Source: a virus
Virus record (IMG/VR): IMGVR_UViG_3300042565_001918
Reading direction: 5' to 3' (one strand)
DNA length: 64,000 bases
The position numbers and the translations under genes are program-made. Positions 17,149 through 64,000 of this stretch are shown here, piece by piece; the first letter of the stretch is position 1; each line of letters starts with the position of its first letter. Under the pieces are notes generated by a model, which did not search any database, had not been told where the DNA came from, and saw only the letters and a list, made by a program, of their open reading frames with translations.

Positions 17149-19050
17149 ATGGAAAATAATAATCAAAATCTAACAATTTGGCAAAGGTTATCCAAAACAT
17201 TTGGACCGAACTCCTTATTGGGTCAAGATTTACCCACATACTCATTAGATAAAAAAGAGTTACTTAAAACTACAAATAAACAAGAGTATGAAAAGGAAAA
17301 ATTACAGGCTCAACAATCCATGTATTTATCGGGTCAATGGGCAAAAATTGAAAACAATCTTTATACTCAAGCAATTTACTATGAACCAACACGATTGGCG
17401 GCATTTTATGATTATGAATCAATGGAATTTACACCTGAGATATCAACCGCATTAGATATATATGCTGAAGAATCAACAACTCCAAATCAAGATGGTTTTA
17501 TTTTACAAATATATTCCGAATCAAAAAGGGTAAAAGGTATTTTAACTGATTTATTTAATAATGTATTGGATGTTAATACCAATTTACAGATGTGGACAAG
17601 AAATACCTGTAAATATGGTGACAATTTTGTGTATCTAAAATTAGACCCCGAAAAGGGTATTGTTGGTTGTATGCAATTACCAAACATTGAGATTGAACGA
17701 TTAGAAAGAGGAATGGCAGCAAAATCAGTAAATGCCGAAGTTGACCCAAAAGAAAAAGGGTTAAGATTCAAATGGAAAGTAAAAGACATGGAATTTAATA
17801 GTTGGGAGGTTGCTCACTTTAGATTACTTGGTGATGATAGAAAACTACCTTACGGAACTTCCATGTTGGAGAAAGCAAGAAGAATTTGGAAACAATTATT
17901 ATTATCGGAAGATGCGATGTTAATCTATAGGACATCAAGAGCACCTGAAAGAAGAGTGTTTAAAGTGTTTGTTGGTAATATGGATGATAAAGATGTTGAA
18001 CCTTACGTACAACGTGTTGCAAACAAATTTAAGCGTGATCAAATCGTTGATAATAAAACAGGAAACGTGGATATGAGATTTAACCAAATGGCTGTGGATC
18101 AGGATTATTTTGTTCCTGTACGTGATGTTACACAAACAATGCCGATTGAGACATTACCAGGAGCTCAGAACTTATCTGAAATAGCGGATATTGAATACAT
18201 CCAAAAGAAATTAGTGACCGCATTACGTGTACCAAAAGCATACTTAGGGTTTGAGGAAGTGGTTGGTGATGGTAAGAACTTATCATTACAAGATATTCGT
18301 TTTGCAAGAACTATTAATAAAATACAAAAAGCAATGATTGCAGAAATGAATAAAATTGCAATCATTCACTTATTTATTTTAGGTTTTGAGGATGATCTAC
18401 AAAACTTTACATTAGGGTTAACCAATCCTTCGAAACAAGCTGATTTATTAATGATTGATGTTTGGAAAGAAAAAGTATTATTATATAAAGATTTAGTGTC
18501 AGAAATACCTAATAGTTTGGCCCCAACTTCGGCAACTTGGGCTAAGAAACATATTTTTGGTTTCTCAGATGAGGATATTAAATTAGACACACAACAACAA
18601 AGATTAGAAAGAGCGGTTGCCGCTGAATTAGCAAATACCGCAACTGTTATTACACATACAGGTATGTTTGATGTTGTGGATAGATTATATAAATCTAAAT
18701 CAGGTTCGACAGAAAATCCACCAGCAGGAGGAGCACCTCCATCAGGTGGTGGTGGAGGATCATTCGGAGGTGGAGGATCATTACCTGACTTCGGAGGTGG
18801 GGGAGAAACTTCACCTGAACCTCCATTACCACCATTAGGGGGTGAAGAAGTTGGTGGGGCACCTGAAGCTCCAGCGGCACCAGGGGCTCCACCTGAAGAA
18901 GAAACTTTACCTGAAGGAAAGAAAAATGATAACTTAAATATCTTACTAGAAAGTGATGATATTTATGGTGATAAGTACATTGATTTATCTAAAGGTAGAA
19001 ATTCTTTAGGTTCAATTGAAAATGAACTGAGCAAATTATTAAGAGATTGA
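17149..19050 (+). CDS. Portal protein (T4 gp20-like)
   Basis: Y..ME..PEI..ALD, EDAMLIYRTSRAPERRVF, IETLPGAQNL, DIEYIQKKL..ALRVP are gp20 family motifs; Gly/Pro-rich C-terminal tail. Confidence 0.95.
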   Translation: MENNNQNLTIWQRLSKTFGPNSLLGQDLPTYSLDKKELLKTTNKQEYEKEKLQAQQSMYLSGQWAKIENNLYTQAIYYEPTRLAAFYDYESMEFTPEISTALDIYAEESTTPNQDGFILQIYSESKRVKGILTDLFNNVLDVNTNLQMWTRNTCKYGDNFVYLKLDPEKGIVGCMQLPNIEIERLERGMAAKSVNAEVDPKEKGLRFKWKVKDMEFNSWEVAHFRLLGDDRKLPYGTSMLEKARRIWKQLLLSEDAMLIYRTSRAPERRVFKVFVGNMDDKDVEPYVQRVANKFKRDQIVDNKTGNVDMRFNQMAVDQDYFVPVRDVTQTMPIETLPGAQNLSEIADIEYIQKKLVTALRVPKAYLGFEEVVGDGKNLSLQDIRFARTINKIQKAMIAEMNKIAIIHLFILGFEDDLQNFTLGLTNPSKQADLLMIDVWKEKVLLYKDLVSEIPNSLAPTSATWAKKHIFGFSDEDIKLDTQQQRLERAVAAELANTATVITHTGMFDVVDRLYKSKSGSTENPPAGGAPPSGGGGGSFGGGGSLPDFGGGGETSPEPPLPPLGGEEVGGAPEAPAAPGAPPEEETLPEGKKNDNLNILLESDDIYGDKYIDLSKGRNSLGSIENELSKLLRD

Positions 19051-20552: not shown

Positions 20553-21290
20553 ATGAGCGGTTATAAAATTTTAGGACCCCAAGATTCGGGTAAAGGTATT
20601 CTTATTGAATATGATGCGGGATATATTAATCCTAATGAGGGTCGTAATTTAGATATATTAAAAGAGTCAAGAAATATGCTTGACCACTCTAAACCATTTG
20701 AATTTTATGCGGTATTACAGAAGTACAATACCCCTAATAGAAATGGTAGAGTTTATCCTGAGAAAATATTAAAGAGAGAGTCGGAAAACTACAAAAAGAT
20801 GATTGAAAAGGGAACCGCTCTCTCTGAATTAAATCACCCTGAATCATCATTGATTGATTTGGATCGTGTTTCTCACATTATCACAGAAGTATGGTGGGAT
20901 GGTAATGTATTGTTAGGTAAAATAAAATTACTTACAAGTCCTGGTTTTCATGAAAGTGGTATTGTTTCCACAAAGGGGGATTTAGCAGCAAACTATTTAC
21001 GACAAGGAGTTACTTTAGGTATTTCTTCTCGTGGGGTAGGATCACTTAAAAAAGTGGGGGACCAAAATGAAGTACAAGATGACTTTGAATTAATTTGTTT
21101 TGACCTTGTATCTTCTCCGTCTACACCGGGGGCTTATTTATTCTTAGATAAAAATGACCGATTAAAATATGAGGAGAATTTAGATGAGGATAAAAAAATG
21201 AATTTAGAAAGAGCAACTGGAATGGAATCCTCATCTATTGAGAAAACAAAAAGTTTAATGGATAAATTAAGTTCATTTCTTGACAAATAA
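20553..21290 (+). CDS. Prohead protease (T4 gp21-like)
   Basis: NRNGRVYP, ALSELNHP (catalytic His), GISSRGVGS (catalytic Ser), FDLVSSPSTPGA. Confidence 0.95.
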   Translation: MSGYKILGPQDSGKGILIEYDAGYINPNEGRNLDILKESRNMLDHSKPFEFYAVLQKYNTPNRNGRVYPEKILKRESENYKKMIEKGTALSELNHPESSLIDLDRVSHIITEVWWDGNVLLGKIKLLTSPGFHESGIVSTKGDLAANYLRQGVTLGISSRGVGSLKKVGDQNEVQDDFELICFDLVSSPSTPGAYLFLDKNDRLKYEENLDEDKKMNLERATGMESSSIEKTKSLMDKLSSFLDK

Positions 21291-23153: not shown

Positions 23154-25034
23154 ATGGGAGCATTATTAGAATCAGGTCTTGTTGGTAACATCGGTTTAAA
23201 ACACCTTAAAGTTATCAAAGAAGATACTATTAACAAATGGGATAAATTAGGATTCCTTGAAGGTCTTAGAGGCCACCTAAAAGAAAACGTAGCACAGTTG
23301 TATGAAAACCAAGCTTCTTTCTTGATTAACGAAGCAACATCTGAAGGTTCTAACGGAGCGTTCGAAACAGTTGTTTTCCCTATCGTAAGAAGAGTTTTCT
23401 CTAAATTGTTGGCTAACGATATCGTTTCTGTACAAGCAATGAACTTACCGATCGGTAAATTATTCTACTTTGTACCTCGTATCCAAGGATATAATGGTGG
23501 TACTGCAAACGCATCAGGTGACCACTACGCACCAATCGGAGCACCTAACGGACCTACAGCAGGTGGTACAGGTAACTCAGGACCAGGAGCAGGATATCCT
23601 GACAATGCAGGAGCATTCGGAAAAAATCTTTACGATTTATTCTACGAAGGTGGTGAGGCAGGTTTAGATCCTCCAGGATTATTTGACTACTCTAAAGGTC
23701 GTTGGTCGGCAGTTACTGCAACTACAACTCTTCAAGCATGGTCAAGTGGATCATTAGTTGACGCAACTGTTGCTGGTGGTGTACCGGCAGGAGGAGTTCA
23801 AATTGCGGCAGGTAACCAAAGAAAATTAATTATTAAAATGTGTGGTTTTGCTGATACAGGAGCGGGTAAATTAATCGGACCTGATGGAAACGAAATGGAT
23901 TCAGAATCTTTCCTTTCTGATCTTAAAATCTTTACTAATTTAAGTACATTCTCTTCTTCAACTACTCCTTGTGATGTTGTAGGTGCAGGTGCTGGTGTTG
24001 CAGTTCCTCTATTATTTAGAGTTGTTACTCAACAATACGGTAAAGGTATCGTTCAATACGGTAACACTGTGACTACAACTTGGCCAACTGATGGTAACGG
24101 TGGTTCATTCAAAAATATCTGTTCTGCAGATGGATGTATCTACTTAGAAGTTGATTTATCTTGTCCAGTATGTGCTGATTGTGATTCTACATCTTTAGAT
24201 GGTTACACAGGTACTACTATTTTCTCTGCGACTTCTGCAACTTCTTTCGTAGCTGTATTCAGAAGATATGAAGAAATGGAATTCGAAGATAAAATTGGAG
24301 AGGTTTCTTTCGATTTAGATTCAGTAACTGTTTCTGTAACCGAAAGAAAATTAAGAGCACAATGGTCTCCTGAGTTAGCTCAAGACGTTGCAGCATTCCA
24401 TAACATCGACGCTGAGGCTGAGTTAACAGCATTGTTATCTGAGCAAGTAGCAGCAGAGATTGACCGTGAGATCTTACGTGACTTGAGAAAAGGAGCGGCT
24501 TGGAACTTACGTTGGGACTACAACGGATGGAGAAGAATTTCTCAAACTACATCTTACACTCAAAAAGATTGGAACCAAACTTTGATTACAGCAATCAACC
24601 AATTGTCAGCACAAATCCACAAATCTACATTGAGAGGTGGAGCTAACTGGATCGTTGTATCTTCTGAGGTTTCAGCAATCTTTGATGATTTAGAATACTT
24701 CCACGTATCTAACGCATCTCCTGAGCAAGATCAGTATAACATGGGTATCGAAAGAGTTGGTACTTTAGCAGGACGTTACCAAGTGTACCGTGATCCTTAC
24801 TTCCCACCAAACCAAGTTTTGATTGGACACAAAGGAACATCATTGTTAGACACAGGTTACATCTACGCACCGTATGTACCTCTACAATTGACACCTACAA
24901 TGTACAACCCATTCAACTTCACACCTATCAAAGGTATTATGACAAGATACGCTAAGAAAATGGTTAACAACCGTTTCTACGGACGTATCACAGTTGATGG
25001 AGTTAGAACATTCGACTTGAGAGAATTGAGATAA
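23154..25034 (+). CDS. Major capsid protein (T4 gp23-like)
   Basis: PIVRRVF..L.A.DIVSVQAM..P.G, RKLRAQWSPELAQDV.A.H.IDAEAEL..LLSEQ...EIDREIL, YAPYVPL, P.KGIMTRY. Confidence 0.97.
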   Translation: MGALLESGLVGNIGLKHLKVIKEDTINKWDKLGFLEGLRGHLKENVAQLYENQASFLINEATSEGSNGAFETVVFPIVRRVFSKLLANDIVSVQAMNLPIGKLFYFVPRIQGYNGGTANASGDHYAPIGAPNGPTAGGTGNSGPGAGYPDNAGAFGKNLYDLFYEGGEAGLDPPGLFDYSKGRWSAVTATTTLQAWSSGSLVDATVAGGVPAGGVQIAAGNQRKLIIKMCGFADTGAGKLIGPDGNEMDSESFLSDLKIFTNLSTFSSSTTPCDVVGAGAGVAVPLLFRVVTQQYGKGIVQYGNTVTTTWPTDGNGGSFKNICSADGCIYLEVDLSCPVCADCDSTSLDGYTGTTIFSATSATSFVAVFRRYEEMEFEDKIGEVSFDLDSVTVSVTERKLRAQWSPELAQDVAAFHNIDAEAELTALLSEQVAAEIDREILRDLRKGAAWNLRWDYNGWRRISQTTSYTQKDWNQTLITAINQLSAQIHKSTLRGGANWIVVSSEVSAIFDDLEYFHVSNASPEQDQYNMGIERVGTLAGRYQVYRDPYFPPNQVLIGHKGTSLLDTGYIYAPYVPLQLTPTMYNPFNFTPIKGIMTRYAKKMVNNRFYGRITVDGVRTFDLRELR

Positions 25035-30572: not shown

Positions 30573-32504
30573 TTATAATTTTTTTCCGTAAACTACTTGG
30601 GGTATTGTTATACCAATAGGTAAAACACTTAATGGATCCACCGCAATTTGTACCTGACCATTTTTTGTTTCTTCTTCATCAATTGCCCCAATTATTGCAT
30701 CTGCCGCAGCTAAAAATAAATTTGGACTTCCATCTGGCATAGGTCCTGTGGGTAATCCTAACTCATCAAATTTCTCTATAACTTTTAACATTGCTCTTGT
30801 TTTTGAAAACCCCGTTAAAACCCTACTTGCAACCAACAAAGCATATGGTAAAGGTTTTTTTTGTGATTTTAGTGACTTTTCAACTAAACTTAAAACAGAT
30901 AGTAAATCATCTATTACACTTTTACATTGTCTAAAATCTGTTACCATTTTTGTTATTAATGCAACTAAAGATAAAACCAACAATGATTTTTTTACAATCG
31001 ATTCATCTTTTATATCCGCCAATATTGATTGAGTTAAAGCAATAATATCGGCCTTTATTATGTCAAAAAGTATCTTTACAAAAAGTGCCATTACTTTAGA
31101 TGCTAATTGGACTATGTATGTTTTAAATTTTTTCGCAAATTCCATTAAAGAATTAACCGAATCTACAGTGTCCTGACCTAATGATTTAGCCATAATCATT
31201 ATTGGTAGAATTGTTTTTGGGGATAATATTGTCATTAATAAAGCTCTTGGGTATTCTTTTAGGAAACTAAGATCTAAATTAAGACCCTTCCTTTCAAATG
31301 TTTTTGTAATATTTTCTGCCGCATTATTAATTTCATTATTATTATTTGTACCAGGGTTAAATATTAAACTATCCAATGTGTCTAACACCGAATTCACCTC
31401 AACAGGTAATTTAACAGACCCACATTCCTCAAATTCAACAACACCTAATTTAATGTCAGAAACTACAGAATCAATATATCTTAAATCAACTTCAGTAAAT
31501 TCAAAAAATGCATCGTCAACCACATCTGTTTGAGATATTTTTGCAACACCGGAGACATCAATTTCTTTGGTTTCATCAAAACACATCCCAAATATACGTT
31601 TCATAACCATTAAAAATTTCGTAAAGTCAATCAGTTTTTTATCACCATCTTTTTTCTCTATTGAGATCGCACCTGTTAATTGATTTATTAAATTTGTGAA
31701 TAAATACTTATAATCAATTATATCTATTGAGGAATAATAATCTTTGAAGAACTCCGATACTTTATTAGTATTATTTGATCTTGGTTTTAAATCTATTTTA
31801 AAAAAGTTACCCACAACCAAGTTACCATTAATATCATTATAATTTTCCACATAAGTTATATCAAATAAGTCCTGAGTAGATGGGCCTTTATAATCAACTC
31901 CGGCAAATGACGGTGAAGAATACGGTACGTTAATATTTTGTATTCTATTATACAACTCTTTGTTCATTGAAAATGGAGTTGTATTATATGTTATTGGATC
32001 TTTTTCATAAGATACTTTACCAACCATATTAGATGGATCTTCTTTTAAAAGACCAACAAAATCAACGGCTCCCACTTTTATATAAAATGTGCTATTTGCG
32101 GGAAACTCTTGTTCTGATTCACACCCAACCGCCTTTACACCTAATTCTGAAACAATATCAAATATTTGAGGTTTTATTTGTTCAATTGCGGTAACAAATG
32201 TTTTTTTTAAATATTTTGTTGTTTTTGTGTCTCCACTTTTTTGAGTTAGAAATTTAATTTCTAACATTTGATCAAATTGAGTTTTAAAATCTTTTTGGAA
32301 TTTTTGTTTTGCCTTTTCTGCGGATGATAATTGTTTATTGGCGAATTTACCAAATTTACTTTCTAAACCACCACCCCAATCTTCAAATGAATCACCAGCT
32401 TTCTTTTCAAGTTTTTTAATATCTTTTTTTACTTGATTATACTTTTGTTTTGTGGTTACTTCTTTCTTAATTTTTTTATATCCGTCATCTATATCTAATG
32501 GCAT
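30573..32504 (-). CDS. Large helical hypothetical protein (baseplate/tail region)
   Basis: 643 aa; amphipathic/hydrophobic helices in the C-terminal third; adjacent to the spike gene. Confidence 0.55.
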   Translation of the reverse strand: MPLDIDDGYKKIKKEVTTKQKYNQVKKDIKKLEKKAGDSFEDWGGGLESKFGKFANKQLSSAEKAKQKFQKDFKTQFDQMLEIKFLTQKSGDTKTTKYLKKTFVTAIEQIKPQIFDIVSELGVKAVGCESEQEFPANSTFYIKVGAVDFVGLLKEDPSNMVGKVSYEKDPITYNTTPFSMNKELYNRIQNINVPYSSPSFAGVDYKGPSTQDLFDITYVENYNDINGNLVVGNFFKIDLKPRSNNTNKVSEFFKDYYSSIDIIDYKYLFTNLINQLTGAISIEKKDGDKKLIDFTKFLMVMKRIFGMCFDETKEIDVSGVAKISQTDVVDDAFFEFTEVDLRYIDSVVSDIKLGVVEFEECGSVKLPVEVNSVLDTLDSLIFNPGTNNNNEINNAAENITKTFERKGLNLDLSFLKEYPRALLMTILSPKTILPIMIMAKSLGQDTVDSVNSLMEFAKKFKTYIVQLASKVMALFVKILFDIIKADIIALTQSILADIKDESIVKKSLLVLSLVALITKMVTDFRQCKSVIDDLLSVLSLVEKSLKSQKKPLPYALLVASRVLTGFSKTRAMLKVIEKFDELGLPTGPMPDGSPNLFLAAADAIIGAIDEEETKNGQVQIAVDPLSVLPIGITIPQVVYGKKL

Positions 32505-37162: not shown

Positions 37163-38134
37163 TTATTTATTTAAGATATTTAACCAATATTCTATCATTT
37201 CGTCCAACATAGTTTCAAATGTATATCTTGGTGACCAATTAGTGAATTCTCTTAATTTTTTTGAGTCGCCTTTAAGATCGTTAAGTTCTTCAGGTCTATA
37301 AAATTTCTCATCTTGTTTAATATATTTTGTCCAATCCAATTCTAATTTATTAAAAACGTATTCAACTAGATCTTTAACCGAGTGGGATATACCTGTAGAA
37401 CACACAAAATCATCCGACTTATCTAATTGTAAAATCATCCACATTGCTTCAACATAATCCTTAGCATGACCCCAATCTCTTGTTGCGTCTAAATTACCCA
37501 ACTTAAGTTCGTTACTTAACCCTAATTTAATTTTAACGGCTTCTTTGCAAACTTTGTTAGTAACAAAATTTGTACCTCGTCTTGGTGATTCATGGTTGAA
37601 TAATATTCCGTTAGAGATAAACATCCCATATGAATTTCTATAATTACGGGATATATTATAACTAAAAACTTTAGCACATCCGTAAGGTGAAACAGGGCTC
37701 ATTGGTGTTGACTCTCTTTGGTAACCGTCTTCATCAATATTATTACCAAACATTTCTGAAGATGATGCCTGATAAATTTTTATTTTTGGGTTAATTAATT
37801 TAACCGCCTCTAAAACATTTAATGTTCCTAAGCCAGTTACGTTTGCGGTATATATTGGTTGATCAAAAGATATTCTAACGTGAGATTGTGCCGCTAAATT
37901 ATATATTTCGTCTGGGTTTATTTCACTTATAATCCTAATTAACGATGAAAGATCGGTTAGGTCGGCATAGTGAAATTTTATTTTTTCAAATACATTATCT
38001 AATCTAGATGTTTGATTTTCAGACACTGAATTTCTTTTTAAAGTTCCGTGAACCTCATAACCTTTATCTAAAAGAAATTCGGCTAAATATGAACCATCTT
38101 GACCATTTATGCCGGTAATTAATGCTTTTTTCAT
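37163..38134 (-). CDS. gmd: GDP-mannose 4,6-dehydratase
   Basis: ALITGINGQDGSYLAEFLL.KGYEV, YNLAAQSHV..SF, YQASSSEMFG, SPYGCAK, GILFNHESPRRG.NFVT.K, RDWGHAKDYV. Confidence 0.97.
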   Translation of the reverse strand: MKKALITGINGQDGSYLAEFLLDKGYEVHGTLKRNSVSENQTSRLDNVFEKIKFHYADLTDLSSLIRIISEINPDEIYNLAAQSHVRISFDQPIYTANVTGLGTLNVLEAVKLINPKIKIYQASSSEMFGNNIDEDGYQRESTPMSPVSPYGCAKVFSYNISRNYRNSYGMFISNGILFNHESPRRGTNFVTNKVCKEAVKIKLGLSNELKLGNLDATRDWGHAKDYVEAMWMILQLDKSDDFVCSTGISHSVKDLVEYVFNKLELDWTKYIKQDEKFYRPEELNDLKGDSKKLREFTNWSPRYTFETMLDEMIEYWLNILNK

Positions 38135-38135
38135 T

Positions 38136-38915
38136 TTATTTGTTAAGTAATTTATAGTTTAATTTAGAATTGGACAAAACACAGAAAGAAGATATATTAG
38201 ATTTTGTACATATAAAATTTTTTGTTTTTGATAATGTAAAAACACCGAATAGTAATTCTTTAATATGGTTATCTATATCTTCAACTGAATTATTAATTTT
38301 AAAAAAAGGTAAATTCATATCTTTGGAAGTAAACTCATCATATGTTATAAGTTTGTTTCCATATCTTTGTTTAAATTTATTTGTATCATATATGTTATCG
38401 CACATTAAAAAAATATTATCAAAATCATTAAATTCAATTTCATTAAAAATATCATGCATTTTTATAATATTATGGTGGGTACCTATATCGGTTGATCTTC
38501 TATGAACCCCAATTGTTGTATTAAAATTAATTTCATGGTGTCTTTTACTAATTAATTCATTTAAAGTTTTATTAGGTATAAAAAACTTATTAATAACTTT
38601 TTCACTAATTAACCTAAGATCCTGATTATATTTTTCAAAACCATAACAATCAATATTTAAAATATTTTCAAATGATTCTATATTTTTATAAAGATGGTTA
38701 TTTATTTTATAATCATTTTCATCTTGTGTTAAATAGATATCATATAAATTTTGATTACCATATCCCGGTATGTTAAATAAATCATGATAATATTTTATAT
38801 CATCATCCCCATTTAATTTTATGAAGTTTACCATGTTTAAAACAGATTCTGTTAAATAAGAAAATAAACCTCTATACGCCTCTTTAGATCTGGCGGGTTT
38901 ATACAATCTGTACAT
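38136..38915 (-). CDS. GDP-fucose-type glycosyltransferase (NodZ/GT23 or O-fucosyltransferase-like)
   Basis: IGVHRRSTD (motif I), IFLMCDN (motif II), LSKTKNFICTKSNIS (motif III). Start reassigned to ATG 38915. Confidence 0.7.
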   Translation of the reverse strand: MYRLYKPARSKEAYRGLFSYLTESVLNMVNFIKLNGDDDIKYYHDLFNIPGYGNQNLYDIYLTQDENDYKINNHLYKNIESFENILNIDCYGFEKYNQDLRLISEKVINKFFIPNKTLNELISKRHHEINFNTTIGVHRRSTDIGTHHNIIKMHDIFNEIEFNDFDNIFLMCDNIYDTNKFKQRYGNKLITYDEFTSKDMNLPFFKINNSVEDIDNHIKELLFGVFTLSKTKNFICTKSNISSFCVLSNSKLNYKLLNK

Positions 38916-40059
38916 TATTAATAATATCACAAATAATATTTATATCTTTAGAAGTTAAATCCTGATGGTTAGGTATGTAAAATCCATACTCATTAATTAA
39001 TTGACAATTAGGTAATGATACTTCTCCATAATTTTTAATCCACATAGGTTTTTTAGACATATCACCAGCAATTAAAGGTCTAACTTCAATATCATTATCA
39101 ATTAATTTCTTTATAATGATTTCCCTATTTTTGTTTACAATTGGATATGCAAAATTTGAAATGAAATTATTCTCGGTATCTGTAATGTTTAATTGGTTAT
39201 CATTTATAGTTGACCTATATAATCGAAAATTTTTATTTCTTTTTTCAGTATAATTATCTAACTTGTCAATCGCTCTTAACCCAATAAATGCTTGTAGATC
39301 CGTTGATCTTAGATTAAATCCCGGTAAATAGAATGTATATAGTGAATCAAATTCACTAATTCCATTTTCGTTTCGTAATTTATTTTGGATTCTTTTTGGT
39401 AAATCTCTATCCCAACCGTGACTTCTCATCATCAATAATGCATGATAAAAATCTGTGTCGTTAGTGTTTATAAAACCACCTTCAATAGTACTTAAATGAT
39501 GACCAAAATACATAGAGAAAAATGATGCAAATCCAAAAGACCCTAAATATTTATTTTCATATTTAGATCCCATGCTCTCACATACATCTTCTAACAATAT
39601 AACATCGTACTTCTCACAAAGATTTATTATTCTTTCCATATCGGGCACTAAACCTAATGGTGAAACCAAAATAAATGATGATGGGGAGTAATCAATAAAT
39701 AAATTTTCTAAATGAGTTAAGTCACAAGATAGATCCTCTAAATTACAATCACATAATATTGGTTCCATACCCAATAACATTGGTGAGCTCACATCGGTTG
39801 CCCAACTTAAACCAGGGACAATAATTTTATTATTTTTTAGACGATTGGTGTGTTGTAATGCCGCTAAAGTTAAAAGTATTGCCGAAGACCCTGAGTTAAC
39901 ATAAACAGAATATTTTGTACCAATTTTTTCGGCCCATTTTGATTCTAGATTCAATGTTAAATCACCTTTAGTTAAACGAGGTATTTCATCTTGTAATAAC
40001 CATTCACATAGGGATTTTACATCATCTTTATTTATTGTGTCATTAACTAATTTTATCAT
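38899..40059 (-). CDS. colD: ColD-like GDP-4-keto-6-deoxymannose 3-dehydratase (DegT fold, His in place of the PLP Lys)
   Basis: VNSGSSA.L, LSWAT, LEDVCESMG, FSMYFGHHLSTIEGG, RSHGW.R.LP; 386 aa; lies between gmd and a GDP-sugar reductase. Confidence 0.75.
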   Translation of the reverse strand: MIKLVNDTINKDDVKSLCEWLLQDEIPRLTKGDLTLNLESKWAEKIGTKYSVYVNSGSSAILLTLAALQHTNRLKNNKIIVPGLSWATDVSSPMLLGMEPILCDCNLEDLSCDLTHLENLFIDYSPSSFILVSPLGLVPDMERIINLCEKYDVILLEDVCESMGSKYENKYLGSFGFASFFSMYFGHHLSTIEGGFINTNDTDFYHALLMMRSHGWDRDLPKRIQNKLRNENGISEFDSLYTFYLPGFNLRSTDLQAFIGLRAIDKLDNYTEKRNKNFRLYRSTINDNQLNITDTENNFISNFAYPIVNKNREIIIKKLIDNDIEVRPLIAGDMSKKPMWIKNYGEVSLPNCQLINEYGFYIPNHQDLTSKDINIICDIINNVQIV

Positions 40060-40954
40060 AATAATTATTATATACTATTTTTATTCCTTCCGTTAATGAT
40101 AAGGGATTGAAATTAGGTAGTAAAGATTTTAATTTTTCTATGGATACGTCTTTTCTATGTTGTCCATTTGGTTTAGATAAATCCCAATTAATTTCTAAAA
40201 ATTCTGAATCACATGAATTTAATGCAATATTAGCCATATCTTTAATTGTTAAATTTTCATTTCCTGCAACATTAAAACTATCATAAATTTCATCAGAGAT
40301 AACATGATAAATTATTTTGGCGAAATCATCGGCAAACATAAATTGTCTTAATGGAGATCCATCTCCAAATAAAGTTATTGATTTTTCACCATTTTGTTTG
40401 GCGTCAAATATTTTCTTTACCAATGCCGTTATGAAATGACTATTAGATTCATGATCTTTATCCCCAACACCATATAAATTACATGGAGTTAAGTATTGGT
40501 ATTTAGTATTATACTGTTTGTTGTACGCATCTATTTGAACCGCTAAACTTCTTTTCGCATATCCGTATGAAAAATTAGTTAACGTTGGCGGACCTAAATG
40601 TAAATCTTCCTCTTTCATTGGATATGTCTCCATTACATCAGGAAAAATACAAGTACTTAAAATACCGATAAATCTTTTTACATCCATTTTATATGCGTAA
40701 TCAACTAATAATGTATTCATCATTACATTTTCAGTATAATACTCCGCGGGTTTATTAATGTTATCTATAATTCCACCAACTTTTGCCGCCAAGTGAATAA
40801 CGACATCCGGTTTATACTTTAGGTACATATTTCTAACTCCCACTTCAGTAGTTAAATCAAAATCCTTTGATGATAAATAAATTGCCTCAGGTAGATATTT
40901 TTTTAAATATTTACCAACTAATCCAGATCCTCCTGTTACTACTATTTTATTCAT
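40043..40954 (-). CDS. GDP-L-fucose/GDP-L-colitose synthase (Fcl/ColC-like epimerase-reductase)
   Basis: VTGGSGLVG, HLAAKVGGI..N, STCIFP, Y.YAKR, PCNLYG..D...SH, GDGSPLRQF. Confidence 0.9.
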   Translation of the reverse strand: MNKIVVTGGSGLVGKYLKKYLPEAIYLSSKDFDLTTEVGVRNMYLKYKPDVVIHLAAKVGGIIDNINKPAEYYTENVMMNTLLVDYAYKMDVKRFIGILSTCIFPDVMETYPMKEEDLHLGPPTLTNFSYGYAKRSLAVQIDAYNKQYNTKYQYLTPCNLYGVGDKDHESNSHFITALVKKIFDAKQNGEKSITLFGDGSPLRQFMFADDFAKIIYHVISDEIYDSFNVAGNENLTIKDMANIALNSCDSEFLEINWDLSKPNGQHRKDVSIEKLKSLLPNFNPLSLTEGIKIVYNNYYDKIS

Positions 40955-41739
40955 TTCACTATTTTTTTTATTTCGTTATCAACTCTTTCAAATAAATTAC
41001 TACCATATTGAGCGGATTTAATAAAATTTTCCTCCACATATTTTAAGTTAGAAAAATATTGATCTTCGGATAAATTGTTAACAACATCAATAATTTCTTC
41101 TATTGAATTAACAATTATAAAACCATTAAGGTTAAAATACTTTCCAATATTTGGACATCCCCAATATATAGGAATTGTTCCCGTTCTAAGGCAATCAATT
41201 AATTTTTCGGTGAACCAATTTTCAATTTGTAAATTTTCTGTACATATTGAAAACATATAATCTTTTAAAGCGTCCGTCTTATTTTCCACATAATTACAAC
41301 ATCTACCATAAATGTCCATTTTATTACCAATATTATTTATTGTTAAATGTCTTAATTTATGACCTGGCAATTCATTTTTTGAAGATGCGATAATTGAAAG
41401 TAATTTATTTTTATCATGTATTTTTTGATCATCTAATGGAATCCAACAATCCCCAAATGGGAAAACAACTGAGTTTGAACACTCATTTAATATTGTCGGG
41501 TCACTTGCAATAATAAGATCAAATTTATTTTTATGTTGTATTGGGAAACTTATATTATTTTCTCTTCTAGGTATTACTCCTTGACCCTCAATTTGCCAAT
41601 AAATTTTATAATCGTAATCATTATGATTATAATGGTCTAAATTAATACCATATTGGTCTACGTATACAATAACTTTTTTTTCTAAATCTCCTAATTTATT
41701 TGGAATACCTCCTATTAGAGTTGGTTTAATTTCTTTCAT
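40951..41739 (-). CDS. GT10-like alpha-1,3/4-fucosyltransferase
   Basis: YMFSICTEN....WFTEKLIDCL..GTIPIYWG is the GT10 fucosyltransferase motif. Confidence 0.85.
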   Translation of the reverse strand: MKEIKPTLIGGIPNKLGDLEKKVIVYVDQYGINLDHYNHNDYDYKIYWQIEGQGVIPRRENNISFPIQHKNKFDLIIASDPTILNECSNSVVFPFGDCWIPLDDQKIHDKNKLLSIIASSKNELPGHKLRHLTINNIGNKMDIYGRCCNYVENKTDALKDYMFSICTENLQIENWFTEKLIDCLRTGTIPIYWGCPNIGKYFNLNGFIIVNSIEEIIDVVNNLSEDQYFSNLKYVEENFIKSAQYGSNLFERVDNEIKKIVK

Positions 41740-42518
41740 ATCACAATCCAGTTTTTACAGTATATATCATTACTGTTTAAATGTTTATTTTTTTCACCAA
41801 ACCATAATTTTGGTGATATGATTTTTTTATCTTCATTTTTATTTAACCATGCCCCCCACCAAGAAAATGAAGAATTTGCAATAATATTGTTTTTACACAT
41901 GGACATTAAATATAAATCCTGATAATCATCATTACCCTCAATAAAAGTTTTATTTTTTATAAATGATAAATTTTCTTTACACCAATTTATATCATCCGAA
42001 AAAATTAAGTAATGAGAATCCTCACCAATAATTTTAATCGATTCTTTATAATATTCAATTGATTGTGGTGGATGATATTGATTTAATCTAACATAATCAC
42101 CTCTTCTTACGTGTATAGAACAAGTATTGTGATTTAATATATCACCATATTTTGTTTCGAGTAAATTATTGGTTAAATCATCAATAGAAAAAATGTTAAG
42201 TATTTTTTCTTGGTTATTTAAAAAATATTTCTCACTTTGAAAATACCCAACCATTTTTGTGTTATTATTAAATTTTGGTATGGCATTATAATTAAAAGAT
42301 GGTTCTTTATAATGTGAATAAGATTCATTTAATGGTTGGAAATTTAATTTCCTAAAAATATTATTTTTATAGTTGTTTGGATTTGAATGTACAATTGTAA
42401 TGTCATTTATATCTAGTATAAAATTTAAATTATCGTCAATTGATTTAGAATATGAAGATGCAATTTGAAATAAATAATTTCCCAATCCACCCATAAGTTT
42501 AACACTTACAAATCCCAT
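41736..42518 (-). CDS. GT11 alpha-1,2-fucosyl/colitosyltransferase
   Basis: GGLGNYLFQ, GYFQSEKYF, SIHVRRGDY, FSDD..WC, D.YLMS.C...IIANSSFSWWGAWL. Confidence 0.92.
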   Translation of the reverse strand: MGFVSVKLMGGLGNYLFQIASSYSKSIDDNLNFILDINDITIVHSNPNNYKNNIFRKLNFQPLNESYSHYKEPSFNYNAIPKFNNNTKMVGYFQSEKYFLNNQEKILNIFSIDDLTNNLLETKYGDILNHNTCSIHVRRGDYVRLNQYHPPQSIEYYKESIKIIGEDSHYLIFSDDINWCKENLSFIKNKTFIEGNDDYQDLYLMSMCKNNIIANSSFSWWGAWLNKNEDKKIISPKLWFGEKNKHLNSNDIYCKNWIVI

Positions 42519-43159
42519 TATTTTTTATTTAAAAGTTTAATTGGGACACCTACAAAAATTTCAGGGTTATCATCTAATAAAGATTTTACAACTGCACTTT
42601 GAGCCCCAAACATTTTATTACTACCAATTGTTAACCTATCTCTTACTATTGATCCTGTACCAAATTCATTCATATCTCCAATATTACAATGTCCTGAAAT
42701 ATGAACACCGGGGTTAGTTGTCACAAAATCACCAATAACTGTGTCATGACCTACTGTTGTATTTAAATTTAATGTCGTATAATTTCCGATACTTATATTT
42801 GTAGTTAAAATACATCCGGGTGAGATAATTCCCCCAACACCCAGCTTAATAGTGTTATCTAATATTTTGGCGTCTATATCAACAAAAGTTGGTGCGGGAA
42901 TTAACCCACTATCTAATGCTTTTTGAACTAAAAGATTTTTTATTTTAGGACTTCCCACCGCAACCGTAAAAAAGTAATTTGAATCAAATTTCCAATCTTT
43001 AACAACAGGATATGAAATTCCGGATATTACAATTTCATTTTGACCATCATTAAGATCATTAACAAAAATAAAATTTTTAATCTGAGGTTGAGATCTTTTT
43101 ATATATAAAAAAAACTCTTTTGCTAAACCGGCCGATCCTAAAATAACTAAAGTTTCCAT
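42518..43159 (-). CDS. Sugar acetyltransferase (PglD/PerB/NeuD family, left-handed beta-helix)
   Basis: LVILGSAGLAKE N-terminal domain, AVGSP, hexapeptide repeats with TVGHD, VGVP. Confidence 0.85.
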   Translation of the reverse strand: METLVILGSAGLAKEFFLYIKRSQPQIKNFIFVNDLNDGQNEIVISGISYPVVKDWKFDSNYFFTVAVGSPKIKNLLVQKALDSGLIPAPTFVDIDAKILDNTIKLGVGGIISPGCILTTNISIGNYTTLNLNTTVGHDTVIGDFVTTNPGVHISGHCNIGDMNEFGTGSIVRDRLTIGSNKMFGAQSAVVKSLLDDNPEIFVGVPIKLLNKK

Positions 43160-43160
43160 A

Positions 43161-44312
43161 TTAATTTAAATTTTTATTTGATAATATTACCATCTCAATA
43201 ATATATTTAATATCATCATTTGTTAAAAACATATGTAATGGTAATGATATTACTTGTTCGGATAATTTATGTGAGTTTGGGCAAGAACCGTAATTACTTT
43301 TATACATTTTATATAACATATTGTCTCTATAATGTACTCCAGGGTAAATACCATATCCATTTAAGAGTTCCATCATTTTATTTCTATTGTTAACAACAAT
43401 TTGAAATAAATGTCTTGAAGGTTTAATGCAATCTTTGTGGGTAGAAATAAATTTAATATCTGTGTTTTTAAATCCTTCTTCATACATTTTACAAATTTCT
43501 CGTCTACGTGAATTATCTTCTTCTAAATATTTTAAACCTACTAAGGCCATTGATGCCATAATAGAATTACCGTGATATTTAAATCCAACATCAACTAAAT
43601 CATATTCCCATTTATATGTTCCTTTATCATTAGATCTTTGATATGTATCCTTATCTATACCAAGCCAAGATAATTTTCGTACTAATGTATCGTAATCCTC
43701 ATTTTTAAAACAGATCATTCCTGAATCCGCCGTAGGTAAATTTTTTACTGATTGGAAACTAAAAACTGACACGTCAACATTATGACCTACGTGTTTTACT
43801 TCTCCATCTATATTCATAAATGTCCCAGCCATATGAGCTCCATCAAGTATTAATTTAAGTTTTTTTCTTTTACATAAATTAATAATTTCATTTAATTGAC
43901 CGGTATTACCTCCTATACCGACAAAAATAACCGCCTTTGTTTTCTTAGTTATTAAACTTTCAACCGATTTTGGATCTAAACATAAGTTATCATCAACATC
44001 CGCAAAAATAGGATTTAGATTTTCATAATTTATTGCGTGATTTGTGGAAACAAATGTCATAGGTGTTGTGATGATTTCATCACCATCATTCCATTTATTT
44101 GAATCTTTAAGTATTTTAATTGCCAAGTGAAGCCCAGATGTGTTTGAGTTTATAAAATGGGCGTGAGGTAGTTCAGTATATTCTTTCCATTTGGATTCAA
44201 TCTCAACGGTTTTGAATCCAAGACCTGTCCATCCTTTATCTAAACATTCTGTTATATGTTCAATAATTTCATCATTTCTGAATTTAGGTACAAATAAATT
44301 TAAATTTTTCAT
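43161..44312 (-). CDS. DegT/DnrJ PLP-dependent sugar aminotransferase (perosamine synthase/SpsC-like)
   Basis: NSNTSGLHLA, TFVST, LDGAH, FSFQSVKNL (PLP Lys retained), SLPLH. Confidence 0.88.
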   Translation of the reverse strand: MKNLNLFVPKFRNDEIIEHITECLDKGWTGLGFKTVEIESKWKEYTELPHAHFINSNTSGLHLAIKILKDSNKWNDGDEIITTPMTFVSTNHAINYENLNPIFADVDDNLCLDPKSVESLITKKTKAVIFVGIGGNTGQLNEIINLCKRKKLKLILDGAHMAGTFMNIDGEVKHVGHNVDVSVFSFQSVKNLPTADSGMICFKNEDYDTLVRKLSWLGIDKDTYQRSNDKGTYKWEYDLVDVGFKYHGNSIMASMALVGLKYLEEDNSRRREICKMYEEGFKNTDIKFISTHKDCIKPSRHLFQIVVNNRNKMMELLNGYGIYPGVHYRDNMLYKMYKSNYGSCPNSHKLSEQVISLPLHMFLTNDDIKYIIEMVILSNKNLN

Positions 44313-61176: not shown

Positions 61177-64000
61177 ATGGGATTTCAACGACTGACGGAT
61201 AGGACAATTGCCACAGGTGTATCACTTAATGATTTAATACATATCGTTATCACTGGTGACACGTCCCAAAATCCGGCAGGATCTTCTTATAAAGCAACAA
61301 TCGCACAAGTAGGTGCGGCAATCTCAAGTGTTGGCACATCAGGTACTAATGGTACATCAGGTACAAATGGAACCAGTGGTAATAATGGAACATCAGGAAC
61401 AGACGGAACATCAGGGACAGATGGTACTTCGGGTTCTGATGGAACTTCCGGATCTAACGGAACAGATGGTACTTCAGGTACTAATGGAACGAATGGGACG
61501 AATGGATCAGATGGAACTAGTGGTTCATCAGGATCTTCCGGAACTGACGGTTCTTCGGGAACTAATGGATCTTCCGGAACGAACGGTTCTTCAGGTACCA
61601 ACGGAACATCAGGTACTAATGGGACATCGGGAACTGATGGAACAAACGGATCCTCAGGAACTAATGGTACCGACGGAACTTCAGGTACAAATGGTACTAA
61701 TGGAAGTTCTGGAACAAATGGGACGGATGGGTCAAACGGAACCAACGGAACTTCAGGGACTAACGGAACTTCAGGGACTAACGGTACTTCAGGAACAGAT
61801 GGTACGAGCGGAACAGATGGTACAAGCGGAATTTCAGGAGTAAACGGAACTAGTGGTACAAATGGTACTAGCGGTACAGATGGTACAGATGGTACAGATG
61901 GTAGTTCAGGAACAAATGGTACTAGTGGAACAGATGGAACTAGCGGTACCGATGGGACAAGTGGAACTAACGGAACAGATGGAACTAGCGGTACTAATGG
62001 AACTAGCGGAACAGATGGAACAAGCGGTACAGATGGAACAAGCGGTACAGATGGAACAAGTGGTACAGATGGAACAAGCGGTACAGATGGAACAAGCGGT
62101 ACAGATGGTACGGATGGTTCAAGTGGAACTAATGGTACAAACGGAACTAGTGGTACCGATGGAACAAGTGGTACCAATGGAACAAGTGGTACAGATGGAA
62201 CTTCAGGTACGGACGGAACTTCAGGAACAGACGGAACTTCAGGAACAGACGGAACTTCAGGAACTAACGGTACAGATGGAACAAGTGGTACTGATGGAAC
62301 AAGTGGTACTGATGGGACTTCAGGGACAAATGGAACAAATGGTACTAGTGGAACTGATGGAACAAGCGGAACAGATGGAACTAGTGGAACTGATGGTACT
62401 TCAGGAACGGACGGAACTAGCGGAACTAATGGTACGGATGGAACTTCAGGGACTAATGGTACGGATGGAACTTCAGGGACTAATGGTACAAATGGAACTT
62501 CAGGAACAAATGGTACTAACGGAACAAACGGAACGAATGGTACATCGGGAACAAACGGTACTAATGGAACGGATGGAACGTCAGGAACTAATGGTACCAA
62601 TGGAACGTCAGGAACTAATGGTACCAATGGCACTAGCGGTACAAATGGAACTAATGGTACAAATGGAACTAGCGGAACTGATGGCACAAGTGGAACTAAC
62701 GGAACTGACGGTACTTCAGGAACTGACGGTACTTCAGGGACAAGCGGAACAGATGGTACTAATGGGTCTTCAGGGACTGACGGGACAAGCGGAACAGATG
62801 GAACAAATGGGTCTTCAGGAACAAACGGCACGGATGGTTCAAGCGGAACAGATGGTACTTCAGGTACTGATGGAACAAATGGATCTAGCGGAACCGATGG
62901 AACGAGTGGTACTTCAGGTACAGATGGAACTAGCGGCACTGATGGTACAAATGGTAGTTCGGGAACTGATGGAACAAATGGTTCAAGTGGAACGGATGGG
63001 ACTTCAGGTACAAATGGTACAAATGGTACAGATGGAACTTCAGGAACCAACGGTACAGACGGAACATCAGGTACTAATGGAACGGATGGTTCAAGCGGAA
63101 CAAATGGAACAGATGGTACTTCAGGTACTAACGGAACGGATGGTACAAGTGGAACAAACGGAACGGATGGAACTTCAGGGACAGATGGAACATCGGGAAC
63201 TAATGGTACTAATGGAACGAACGGAACAGATGGTACGAGCGGAACTAATGGAACAGATGGTACAAGCGGAACTAATGGAACAGATGGTTCAAGCGGAACT
63301 AATGGAACAGACGGAACTTCGGGGACAGACGGAACGAGTGGGACAGATGGAACTAGTGGAACAAACGGTACAGACGGAACTTCGGGGACTAACGGGACAG
63401 ATGGTACGGACGGAACTAGCGGAACTAATGGTACGGATGGTAGTTCGGGCACAAACGGTACAGATGGAACTTCAGGAACAAACGGAACGAATGGTACTGA
63501 CGGAACTAGTGGTACTGACGGAACTAGTGGAACTGACGGTACTAGTGGAACTGACGGAACTAGTGGGACTGACGGAACTAGTGGAACTAATGGTACTGAC
63601 GGAACTAGTGGAACGGATGGAAGTTCAGGAACAGACGGAACTAGCGGTACAAACGGTACGGATGGAACTTCAGGTACGGATGGAACGTCAGGAACGGATG
63701 GAACGTCAGGAACGAATGGTACAAACGGAACTAATGGTACCGATGGAACTAGCGGTACGGATGGAAGTAGTGGTACAGATGGAACAAGTGGTCTTTCAGG
63801 TGTTGATGGTACTGATGGAACTAGTGGTACTGACGGAACTGATGGGACTTCAGGAACAAACGGAACAGATGGTACTAGCGGTACTGACGGAACTAATGGA
63901 ACGTCGGGAACTGACGGAACTTCAGGAACAAACGGAACAGATGGTACTAGTGGTAGCGACGGAACCAGCGGAACTAATGGTACGGATGGGTCAAGTGGAA
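61177..64000 (+). CDS. Collagen-like Gly-Thr-(Ser/Asp/Asn) repeat fibre protein, 3' end outside window (not in the ORF track)
   Basis: ATG 61177 gives MGFQRLTDRTIATGVSLNDLIHIVITGDTSQNPAGSSYKATIAQVGAAISSV, then GTSGTNGTSGTD... with no stop seen to the window end (>940 codons). Confidence 0.88.
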   Translation, partial: MGFQRLTDRTIATGVSLNDLIHIVITGDTSQNPAGSSYKATIAQVGAAISSVGTSGTNGTSGTNGTSGNNGTSGTDGTSGTDGTSGSDGTSGSNGTDGTSGTNGTNGTNGSDGTSGSSGSSGTDGSSGTNGSSGTNGSSGTNGTSGTNGTSGTDGTNGSSGTNGTDGTSGTNGTNGSSGTNGTDGSNGTNGTSGTNGTSGTNGTSGTDGTSGTDGTSGISGVNGTSGTNGTSGTDGTDGTDGSSGTNGTSGTDGTSGTDGTSGTNGTDGTSGTNGTSGTDGTSGTDGTSGTDGTSGTDGTSGTDGTSGTDGTDGSSGTNGTNGTSGTDGTSGTNGTSGTDGTSGTDGTSGTDGTSGTDGTSGTNGTDGTSGTDGTSGTDGTSGTNGTNGTSGTDGTSGTDGTSGTDGTSGTDGTSGTNGTDGTSGTNGTDGTSGTNGTNGTSGTNGTNGTNGTNGTSGTNGTNGTDGTSGTNGTNGTSGTNGTNGTSGTNGTNGTNGTSGTDGTSGTNGTDGTSGTDGTSGTSGTDGTNGSSGTDGTSGTDGTNGSSGTNGTDGSSGTDGTSGTDGTNGSSGTDGTSGTSGTDGTSGTDGTNGSSGTDGTNGSSGTDGTSGTNGTNGTDGTSGTNGTDGTSGTNGTDGSSGTNGTDGTSGTNGTDGTSGTNGTDGTSGTDGTSGTNGTNGTNGTDGTSGTNGTDGTSGTNGTDGSSGTNGTDGTSGTDGTSGTDGTSGTNGTDGTSGTNGTDGTDGTSGTNGTDGSSGTNGTDGTSGTNGTNGTDGTSGTDGTSGTDGTSGTDGTSGTDGTSGTNGTDGTSGTDGSSGTDGTSGTNGTDGTSGTDGTSGTDGTSGTNGTNGTNGTDGTSGTDGSSGTDGTSGLSGVDGTDGTSGTDGTDGTSGTNGTDGTSGTDGTNGTSGTDGTSGTNGTDGTSGSDGTSGTNGTDGSSG
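61333..64000 (+). repeat. 9-bp coding tandem repeat ggN-acN-(tcN/agy/gay/aay)
   Basis: About 295 Gly-X-Y triplets with Gly at every third codon. Confidence 0.92.

Follow-up and report, generated by a model that had tools for sequence, protein, structure and literature searches.

A putative GDP-L-colitose cassette in an uncultured T4-like phage

Colitose is a rare 3,6-dideoxy sugar, not known outside bacterial surface glycans, of a class that serves as a strain-specific surface antigen, and the pathway that makes it, consisting of Gmd, ColD and ColC, is textbook biochemistry. As far as we know, 3,6-dideoxyhexoses are confined to bacterial O-antigens, and the nucleotide-sugar pathways that have been described in viruses extend to 6-deoxy and amino sugars. 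GDP-fucose and GDP-rhamnose are known from chloroviruses, fucose genes from cyanophages, and viosamine, bacillosamine and others from giant viruses. Here, we describe a gene cassette on a stretch of viral DNA of 64,000 nucleotides (IMG/VR record IMGVR_UViG_3300042565_001918, hereafter the window), which encodes Gmd, a ColD-like 3-dehydratase and a reductase of the Fcl (GDP-fucose synthase) family. The cassette probably makes GDP-L-colitose (3-deoxy-L-fucose) from the GDP-D-mannose of the host. What is new is the carrier, a phage, and not the pathway. A literature search by titles and abstract openings, with most subscription journals outside its range, found no virus-encoded colitose or 3-dehydrase pathway. 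If the reading is true, a viral 3,6-dideoxyhexose pathway extends the viral sugar repertoire to a strain-specific surface-antigen class.

As bacterial references, we used the colitose clusters of E. coli O55 and O111, taken by accession. The O55:H7/O111 system, for which ColD structures exist (2gms, 2gmu, 2r0t, 3b8x and 3gr9), shares with the window the three enzyme families (gmd, colC and colD). In both clusters colC lies immediately upstream of colD with overlapping ends, as in the window. E. coli ColD likewise has a catalytic His in place of the lysine that binds pyridoxal phosphate (PLP), has no Fe-S cysteines, and the O55 cluster contains a glycosyltransferase (GT) gene of family GT11, as the window does. 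The identity to the E. coli proteins is, however, only 33-34% for ColD and 33% for the reductase, the reductase is non-orthologous, and the phage protein has Gly for Ser187 of ColD. Furthermore, manB, manC, gmm, wzx and wzy accompany the bacterial genes but not the phage genes, which are set in a lytic-type, probably jumbo, phage genome beside phoH and dUTPase.

Among viruses, the cyanophages P-SSM2, S-SKS1, S-SCSM1 and DSL-LC03 also possess gmd and an Fcl-family gene, with GT2, GT10 or GT11 genes nearby and no lipid-carrier machinery annotated. Unlike the window, they have no ColD-type gene within 5-6 kb on each side, and their Fcl genes belong to the canonical Fcl clade. The cultured Synechococcus phage ACG-2014f encodes, as gp223-gp224-gp225, Gmd, an Fcl-family short-chain dehydrogenase/reductase (SDR) and a His-type DegT protein (FSFYFGHH) in one block with GTs, which is apparently the same pathway in an isolated phage. 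This trio differs from the window in the 30% identity of its DegT protein to the window ColD, in the order gmd-SDR-DegT and in the placement of the SDR in the canonical Fcl clade. The proteins are annotated in the ACG-2014f record only as “nucleotide-sugar epimerase”, “aminotransferase” or “hypothetical protein”.

The CDP-6-deoxy-L-threo-D-glycero-4-hexulose 3-dehydrase of Yersinia (E1; 3bcx, 3bb8), which has E3 as its reductase, shares the DegT fold and the His-for-Lys replacement. Passages of PMC8987622 describe E1 as removing the C3 oxygen of a 4-keto-6-deoxy nucleotide sugar, as the ColD family does. E1 has 437 residues, carries a [2Fe-2S] cysteine motif and needs E3, whereas the window protein has 386 residues and no such cysteines. 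True E1-like genes are found in other phage loci (L116, L123 and others; L numbers denote the related loci collected for this analysis), not in the window.

The ColD-like dehydratase

The translated dehydratase gene contains FSMYFGHHLSTIEGG at residues 181-195. In a phmmer search of the whole PDB, the top matches were four E. coli ColD entries, with 2gms scoring 198.5 bits (E 1.9e-57) over residues 28-377, followed by Yersinia E1 (115.6 bits) and perosamine synthase (Per, 95 bits). The crystallized protein is encoded by colD of E. coli O55:H7 CB9615 (885 bits), apart from an offset of 2 in the chain numbering. The original prediction, made from the sequence alone, had placed a His at the position of the PLP lysine, and the structural chains bear this out. 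Phage His187, the first His of the motif, lies over the residue altered in the H188N (3b8x), H188K (2r0t) and S187N/H188K (3gr9) chains. Since these mutant chains differ from the wild type at this column, His187 corresponds to the catalytic His188 of ColD and to the PLP-lysine position of aminotransferases. We aligned the window protein with two E. coli ColD proteins and 86 locus open reading frames (ORFs), giving 89 sequences. All 89 have both His188 and His189 (E. coli numbering), and because of this invariance the His is not a chance substitution. Every probed position with a functional role around the cofactor and the GDP site is kept in this alignment.

E1 and SpnQ, unlike ColD, have a four-cysteine [2Fe-2S] motif according to passages of PMC8987622. 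In the alignment with E1, the cysteine stretch RDWGRDCYCAPGCDNTCKK lies over phage RSHGWDRDLPKRIQNKLRN, which is free of Cys; the Cys-free phage segment HGWDRDLPK resembles HGWTRNLPKK of ColD. The E1/RfbH identity implied by the automatic naming of the Joint Genome Institute (JGI) is rejected because of the absent Cys motif and the lower score (115.6 versus 198.5 bits). The JGI names of close relatives, “CDP-6-deoxy-D-xylo-4-hexulose-3-dehydrase” or “E1”, appear to give the right dehydrase class and the wrong subtype.

For a phylogenetic tree of DegT proteins, 171 sequences of 330-480 residues were taken, of which 73 remained after reduction at 80% identity. ORFs with inteins, fragments and the O111 ColD, which is nearly identical to the O55 protein, are not among them. 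Among the rows, L137 is ColD-like by motif and L177_7993 carries the His. Branch support was calculated as the Shimodaira-Hasegawa-like approximate likelihood ratio (SH-aLRT), with 95 as the mark used. The His-type proteins are split from six Lys-type aminotransferases, including E. coli ArnB, E. coli WecE and the second DegT protein of the window (SH-aLRT 100). Within the His type, an E1-like clade with a PAHH motif and the Cys stretch stands apart (SH-aLRT 96), and the other clade unites E. coli ColD, all phage ColD-like proteins and a type with the motif GHQ (SH-aLRT 92). The window protein therefore does not group with non-ColD families, the outcome that the original prediction had named as speaking against it. 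Its placement on the E. coli ColD side appears good rather than decisive, since E. coli ColD is a long branch and 92 lies below the 95 mark.

Two loci (L139:1084-3597 and L140:5935-8448) contain a ColD-like ORF of 2514 nt with approximately 450 residues inserted directly after the catalytic His (FSTYFGH/S...HNST, the slash marking the point of insertion). This looks like an intein within the dehydratase active site.

The reductase partner and its recurrence in viral loci

The end of the reductase gene overlaps the start of the ColD-like gene by 17 nt. The reductase scores 205 bits against the GDP-fucose synthase model NF047922 (cut-off 500), and 183.9 and 130 bits against the human and E. coli GDP-fucose synthases, respectively. 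NCBIfam has no model for ColD or ColC, and the PDB has no ColC structure. The window reductase has all of Ser107, Cys109, Tyr136, Lys140 and His179 (E. coli Fcl numbering), as have both E. coli ColC proteins. We take the Ser/Tyr/Lys triad and the Cys109/His179 epimerization pair to act as in GMER. Across a reductase alignment of 71 rows, the Cys, Tyr and Lys are invariant, the His is found in 70 and the Ser in 67, with Thr in three. In a reductase tree of 73 rows, from which identical sequences and ORFs shorter than 250 residues were excluded, the window protein falls in a phage clade of 51 rows (SH-aLRT 99). E. coli Fcl and O126 Fcl fall in the canonical Fcl clade, together with the P-SSM2, S-SKS1, S-SCSM1 and DSL-LC03 genes. 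By this tree, the window reductase is a member of a phage-specific Fcl clade and not a ColC orthologue. The original prediction of an Fcl/ColC-like reductase thus stands for the family, the catalytic residues and the gene order, but not for orthology with E. coli ColC. A ColC-like role is supported by the catalytic residues, by the gene order and, mainly, by co-occurrence with a His-type dehydratase.

To survey this co-occurrence, we used two sets of loci. An IMG/VR scan with the window ColD-like protein returned 89 relatives, and 80 loci were kept (the ColD-seeded set). A second IMG/VR scan, with an alignment of the reductase clade only, returned at least 568 relatives, from which 80 loci were kept (the reductase-seeded set). 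The second set is independent of the choice of ColD, and 47 of its 80 loci share no sequence with the first. It supersedes a scan of IMG/VR with a single reductase sequence, which gave 8 loci, all on contigs that had been collected before. A scan of genome contigs with ColD gave 5 loci, all from metagenome-assembled genomes (MAGs) and three of them short fragments.

In the ColD-seeded set, an Fcl-family ORF lies directly upstream of the dehydratase in 69 of the 80 loci and elsewhere in 8; it is absent from 3, two of which have at most 42 nt of upstream flank. Gmd is encoded directly downstream in 61 loci, elsewhere in 8, and is absent from 11 (four with less than 900 nt of flank, one with 1.6 kb and six with at least 7.5 kb). 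In the reductase-seeded set, 72 of the 80 loci kept from at least 568 relatives contain at least one His-type DegT ORF. A ColD-like type is found in 54 of them; 8 have the E1-like type alone, 8 the GHQ type alone, and 2 combine E1-like with GHQ. Among the 8 loci that lack a His-type DegT, four have at most 799 nt downstream and one has a partial ColD match at the locus end. All 8 Lys-type sequences in the reductase-seeded alignment (7 locus ORFs and, as a reference, the second DegT of the window) are not adjacent to the reductase. The cassette is recurrent in environmental phages and not peculiar to this one.

Variants of the arrangement were also observed. Eight loci (L116, L123, L141, L142, L148, L152, L157 and L173; for example L116:6928-8274) have the order reductase-gmd-dehydratase, and their dehydratases are E1/RfbH-like, with approximately 446 residues, a CSFFPAHHMT motif and the cysteine stretch DWGRACYCN..C..C, placing the Fe-S type beside gmd. 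A third His-type DegT group with the motif TSTYFGHQLQS (L146:5866-7038, L153, L155, L160-L163, L172, L129 and L151) shows 30-34% identity to the window ColD, is encoded immediately downstream of genes of the reductase clade and makes up a clade by itself (SH-aLRT 100). L083, a 100 kb contig of a Pyrinomonadaceae MAG (Acidobacteriota), contains a reductase-ColD pair with 51% and 59% identity to the window proteins and no gmd within 8 kb. The pair may belong to the bacterium itself or to a prophage, or the contig may come from a phage and have been binned into the MAG.

The proposed pathway and its alternatives

The Gmd protein of the window matches Pfam PF16363 (GDP_Man_Dehyd) over its full length with 397.6 bits (cut-off 27). 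It shows 46% identity to the Gmd of E. coli colanic acid synthesis and 49% to ACG-2014f gp223, within a range of 44-49% across the E. coli and cyanophage proteins. The gene lies 765 nt downstream of the ColD-like gene. The original prediction had placed the dehydratase between gmd and the reductase; the reductase does adjoin it, but an ORF that had been missed, orf264, separates it from gmd.

We infer the chemistry of the steps, the stereochemistry of the product and the acceptor. Gmd would oxidize and dehydrate GDP-mannose to GDP-4-keto-6-deoxy-D-mannose. The ColD-like enzyme would form a Schiff base between pyridoxamine phosphate (PMP) and C4, from which His187, acting as acid/base, would expel the 3-OH. 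Hydrolysis would then yield GDP-4-keto-3,6-dideoxy-D-mannose and ammonia, and glutamate would regenerate PMP, with no Fe-S cluster or partner reductase required. The Fcl-family enzyme would epimerize C5 and reduce C4 with NAD(P)H to give GDP-L-colitose. GDP-fucose may arise as a by-product. Finally, orf264 and the GT10 and GT11 enzymes would attach colitose, and perhaps fucose as well, to a glycan that the remaining soluble phage GTs of the island assemble. The colitose pathway proposed in the original prediction thus finds in silico support in similarity, the absence of the Fe-S motif, the tree and the gene order.

Several observations weigh against this reading. Pairwise scores cannot split ColC from Fcl, since the window reductase scores 142 bits with O55 ColC, 130 with O111 ColC and 143 with E. 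coli Fcl by blastp, and 184 with human GDP-fucose synthase; E. coli ColC itself scores 229 bits with E. coli Fcl. In the tree, the window reductase groups away from the two E. coli ColC proteins, which share a long branch of their own. The ColD-adjacent reductases are moreover polyphyletic, with ACG-2014f gp224 and the LR756502 gene in the canonical Fcl clade. The Fcl family has therefore supplied partners for ColD more than once. Gmd reaches 402.8 bits on the NCBIfam equivalog TIGR01472, just below the cut-off of 415. Three reductase-seeded loci with a full 5-kb flank (L138, L159 and L176) have the clade reductase and no dehydratase. Lastly, ColD Ser187 is replaced by Gly in the window protein and in 86 of the 89 aligned sequences. 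We give this feature little weight, because a preprint (10.1101/2021.09.04.459008) states, in the passage concerned, that Ser187 is not conserved among characterized dehydratases.

One alternative is that the cassette is mainly a GDP-L-fucose pathway, with Gmd and a true Fcl as in cyanophages, and that the ColD-like enzyme diverts a part of the flux, giving a fucose/colitose mixture or mostly fucose. The reductase is equally similar to bona fide Fcl and to ColC and most similar to the human synthase, three loci of its clade lack a dehydratase, and P-SSM2, S-SKS1, S-SCSM1 and DSL-LC03 combine gmd-fcl with GT11/GT10 genes and no ColD in the flanks given above. WbgN-type GT11 enzymes, moreover, take both donors according to passages of PMC12723683. 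We nevertheless regard a mainly fucose-making cassette as unlikely, given the His-type 3-dehydratase in 72 of the 80 independently seeded loci kept from at least 568 relatives and the 17-nt overlap of the reductase and ColD genes, which fits co-translation. The dehydratase is also under selection, as every catalytic position is invariant across the 89 sequences.

It is quite improbable that the dehydratase acts as proposed but that another GDP-3,6-dideoxyhexose, or a 4-keto sugar that is modified further, is formed, for which epimerization by the reductase or its face of reduction may differ. The separation of the reductase clade from E. coli ColC would suit such a product, and the pairing of this clade with three His-type dehydratases (ColD-like, GHQ, and E1-like with the Cys stretch) hints at chemical diversity. 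The Cys109/His179 pair and the Ser/Tyr/Lys triad are, however, conserved like those of Fcl and ColC, two enzymes with L-configured products, and the neighboring GT10, GT11 and FUT8-like families use donors of the GDP-L-fucose type. That the His-type DegT protein is not a 3-dehydratase at all, but a paralogue that has lost activity, an aminotransferase that works slowly, as SpnQ does in the absence of its reductase, or an enzyme for a non-GDP sugar, is hardly credible: the Gly at Ser187, a position that helps to set dehydratase versus aminotransferase behavior in E. coli ColD, and the transaminase activity of SpnQ under some conditions (passages of PMC8987622) would allow it, but the same passages report no transferase activity for ColD or E1 under similar conditions, ColD is the closest solved relative over 350 aligned residues, in 61-69 of 80 loci the gene has gmd on one side and an Fcl-family gene on the other, and the invariant catalytic positions argue against decay.

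Glycosyltransferases, the gene island and the phage

For a cassette that probably makes GDP-L-colitose, the source of GDP-mannose and the acceptor of the sugar have to be considered. A Pfam scan and tblastn with the E. coli O55 proteins (best E 0.18) detected no manB, manC, gmm, wzx or wzy in the window, so that the original prediction was correct on manB and manC. The NTP_transferase domain was found in none of five related phage records, the largest completeness estimate among them being 100% for a record of 383 kb, in comparison to 14 of 14 control genomes. Taken together, the lack of manB and manC in the window and of this domain in the five relatives indicates that GDP-mannose comes from the host. 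No homologues of an initiating transferase, flippase or polymerase were found among the sugar genes of the window. A crude hydropathy scan, which is not a proper transmembrane predictor, found no polytopic membrane proteins among the 22 island ORFs other than o30573. This ORF (30573..32504) has four hydrophobic windows, and its ESM Atlas scores of at most 0.84 are uninformative. The sugar may be placed on a soluble acceptor, for example on virion proteins, or the phage may draw on host machinery.

Three fucosyltransferase-like genes are adjacent to the pathway genes (Table 1). The GT11 protein is 35% identical (139 bits) to the GT11 gene product of the E. coli O55 cluster, which we infer to be WbgN. 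Passages of PMC12723683 describe WbgN of E. coli O55 as a characterized alpha-1,2-colitosyltransferase that also accepts GDP-fucose. A GT10 homologue is present in many related loci. The likely true start of orf264 is the ATG at 38915, and the ESM Atlas protein begins at the same residue. It has no match in Pfam, NCBIfam or PHROGs, with none found by hidden Markov models even at E 5. Its H-x-R-x-T-D motif (GVHRRSTD), which fits the pattern H-x-R-x-x-D of GDP binding in this superfamily, is invariant in 6 of 6 homologues and aligns with the HVRRGD region of the window GT11. Among its ESM Atlas neighbors, 11-13% of members have NodZ, FUT8_N_cat or O-FucT domains. The AlphaFold2 model is poor, with a predicted local distance difference test score (pLDDT) of 53.2, and the top Foldseek matches in the PDB were FUT8 (E 1.5e-5), POFUT2, NodZ, POFUT1 and AtFUT1 (E 1.5e-5 to 1e-2, TM-score at most 0.43). 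We take this low-confidence fold match as a lead and consider orf264, with moderate confidence, to be a third fucosyltransferase-like GT. With homologues in 5 of the 80 ColD-seeded loci, it is accessory. Only L010 and L012 have a close homologue in the slot that separates ColD from gmd, and in L043, L055 and L058 a distant one is found elsewhere in the cassette. The slot holds other short ORFs in L008, L016, L025 and L041, and the nearest relatives of the window, L007 and L066 (above 90% identity for most genes), are without orf264. The gap between ColD and gmd is thus an insertion slot, filled from phage to phage by unrelated ORFs of 200-270 residues. In L031, L055 and L058, variable ORFs of a similar kind separate the reductase from ColD.

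Beyond this phage, it is possible, although we hold it only tentatively, that aquatic jumbo phages as a group make 3,6-dideoxyhexoses through the phage-specific Fcl clade, paired interchangeably with ColD-like, GHQ and E1-like dehydratases, and that soluble fucosyltransferase-like enzymes put colitose on a cytoplasmic acceptor, most plausibly virion proteins. If true, the outcome would be a Lewis-antigen-like glycan coat that is built with no lipid carrier, flippase or polymerase. A further question is how a lytic phage would profit from this glycan, which might mask the virion or remodel the host surface against superinfection. The cassette is testable, since many metagenomic phages contain it and a cyanophage isolate has it as well. 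It also offers very divergent new ColD and colitosyltransferase candidates for chemo-enzymatic glycan synthesis.

Table 1 Features of the cassette, the gene island and the phage structural region in the window.
Feature	Position	Strand	Remarks
gmd, GDP-mannose 4,6-dehydratase	37163..38134	-	323 residues; predicted to make GDP-4-keto-6-deoxy-D-mannose
orf264, probable GDP-6-deoxyhexose (fucosyl/colitosyl) transferase	38136..38930	-	264 residues; FUT8/NodZ/POFUT superfamily (GT23/GT65/NodZ-like); between ColD-like gene and gmd
ColD-like PMP/PLP-dependent GDP-4-keto-6-deoxy-D-mannose 3-dehydratase (putative)	38899..40059	-	386 residues; DegT fold; catalytic His187
Fcl-family epimerase/reductase (SDR), proposed GDP-L-colitose synthase, ColC-like	40043..40954	-	303 residues
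GT10 (alpha-1,3/4-fucosyltransferase-like), candidate GDP-sugar user	40951..41739	-	Pfam PF00852, 40.8 bits
GT11 (alpha-1,2-fucosyltransferase-like), candidate colitosyltransferase	41736..42518	-	Pfam PF01531, 104.5 bits
NeuD/PglB/VioB-family acetyltransferase and Lys-type DegT aminotransferase	42518..44312	-	DegT gene at 43161..44312
Protein with SprB repeats	9902..12034	+	710 residues; structural region
Portal	17149..19050		PHROGs
Prohead protease	20553..21290		PHROGs
T4-type major head protein	23154..25034	+	PHROGs
Collagen-repeat tail fibre	61177..63999	+	PHROGs; extends past window end

The cassette is part of an island at approximately 33.6-49.6 kb, in which the ORFs of at least 80 residues are tightly packed and all on the minus strand, except for four short overlapping ones. 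From 33.6 kb upward, the order assigned by Pfam, NCBIfam and PHROGs is GT2, GT1, an ORF without assignment, PhoH, Gmd, orf264, the ColD-like protein, the Fcl-like SDR, GT10, GT11, a NeuD-family acetyltransferase, a Lys-type DegT aminotransferase, GT2, GT25, a double GT2, dUTPase, an exonuclease and another GT. The second DegT protein contains FSFQSVKNLPT with Lys at the PLP column, so the alignment confirms the lysine that the original prediction had read in this motif. A specific likeness of this protein to perosamine synthase was rejected, since its best PDB match is ArnB (152.8 bits) versus 88.5 bits for Per. The pair of acetyltransferase and Lys-type DegT suggests that another branch leads to an N-acetylated amino sugar and may start at the 4-keto intermediate of the first. 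The pair is common only to L007 and L066.

The window derives from an uncultured T4-like, probably jumbo, tailed phage. A bacterial origin is ruled out by the portal, the prohead protease and the major head protein. In tblastn, the major head protein matched T4-like and jumbo phages, with an uncultured huge phage, Microcystis phage Mel-JY01 and Flavobacterium phage immuto as the top matches (41-47% identity over about half of the query). Of its 626 residues, the T4-type family match is confined to C-terminal residues ~354-603, and the N-terminal 350 residues are unmatched. For related IMG/VR records, the estimated completeness is 21% with 62.9 kb, 57% with 166 kb and 100% with 383 kb, and records of 63-210 kb span 21-64%; because of these estimates the full genome is probably a few hundred kilobases in size. 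The repeats in the 710-residue protein of the structural region match Pfam PF13573 with 56.9 bits. SprB repeats are known from gliding adhesins of Bacteroidota. Together with the likeness of the head protein to Flavobacterium phages and the low G+C content (27-36% over most of the window), they give a weak clue to a Bacteroidota host. The collagen-like repeat gene of the tail fibre raises the G+C content to 48%, compared to 27-36% elsewhere, and the long antisense ORFs across the tail-fibre gene are probably artefacts of the repeat.

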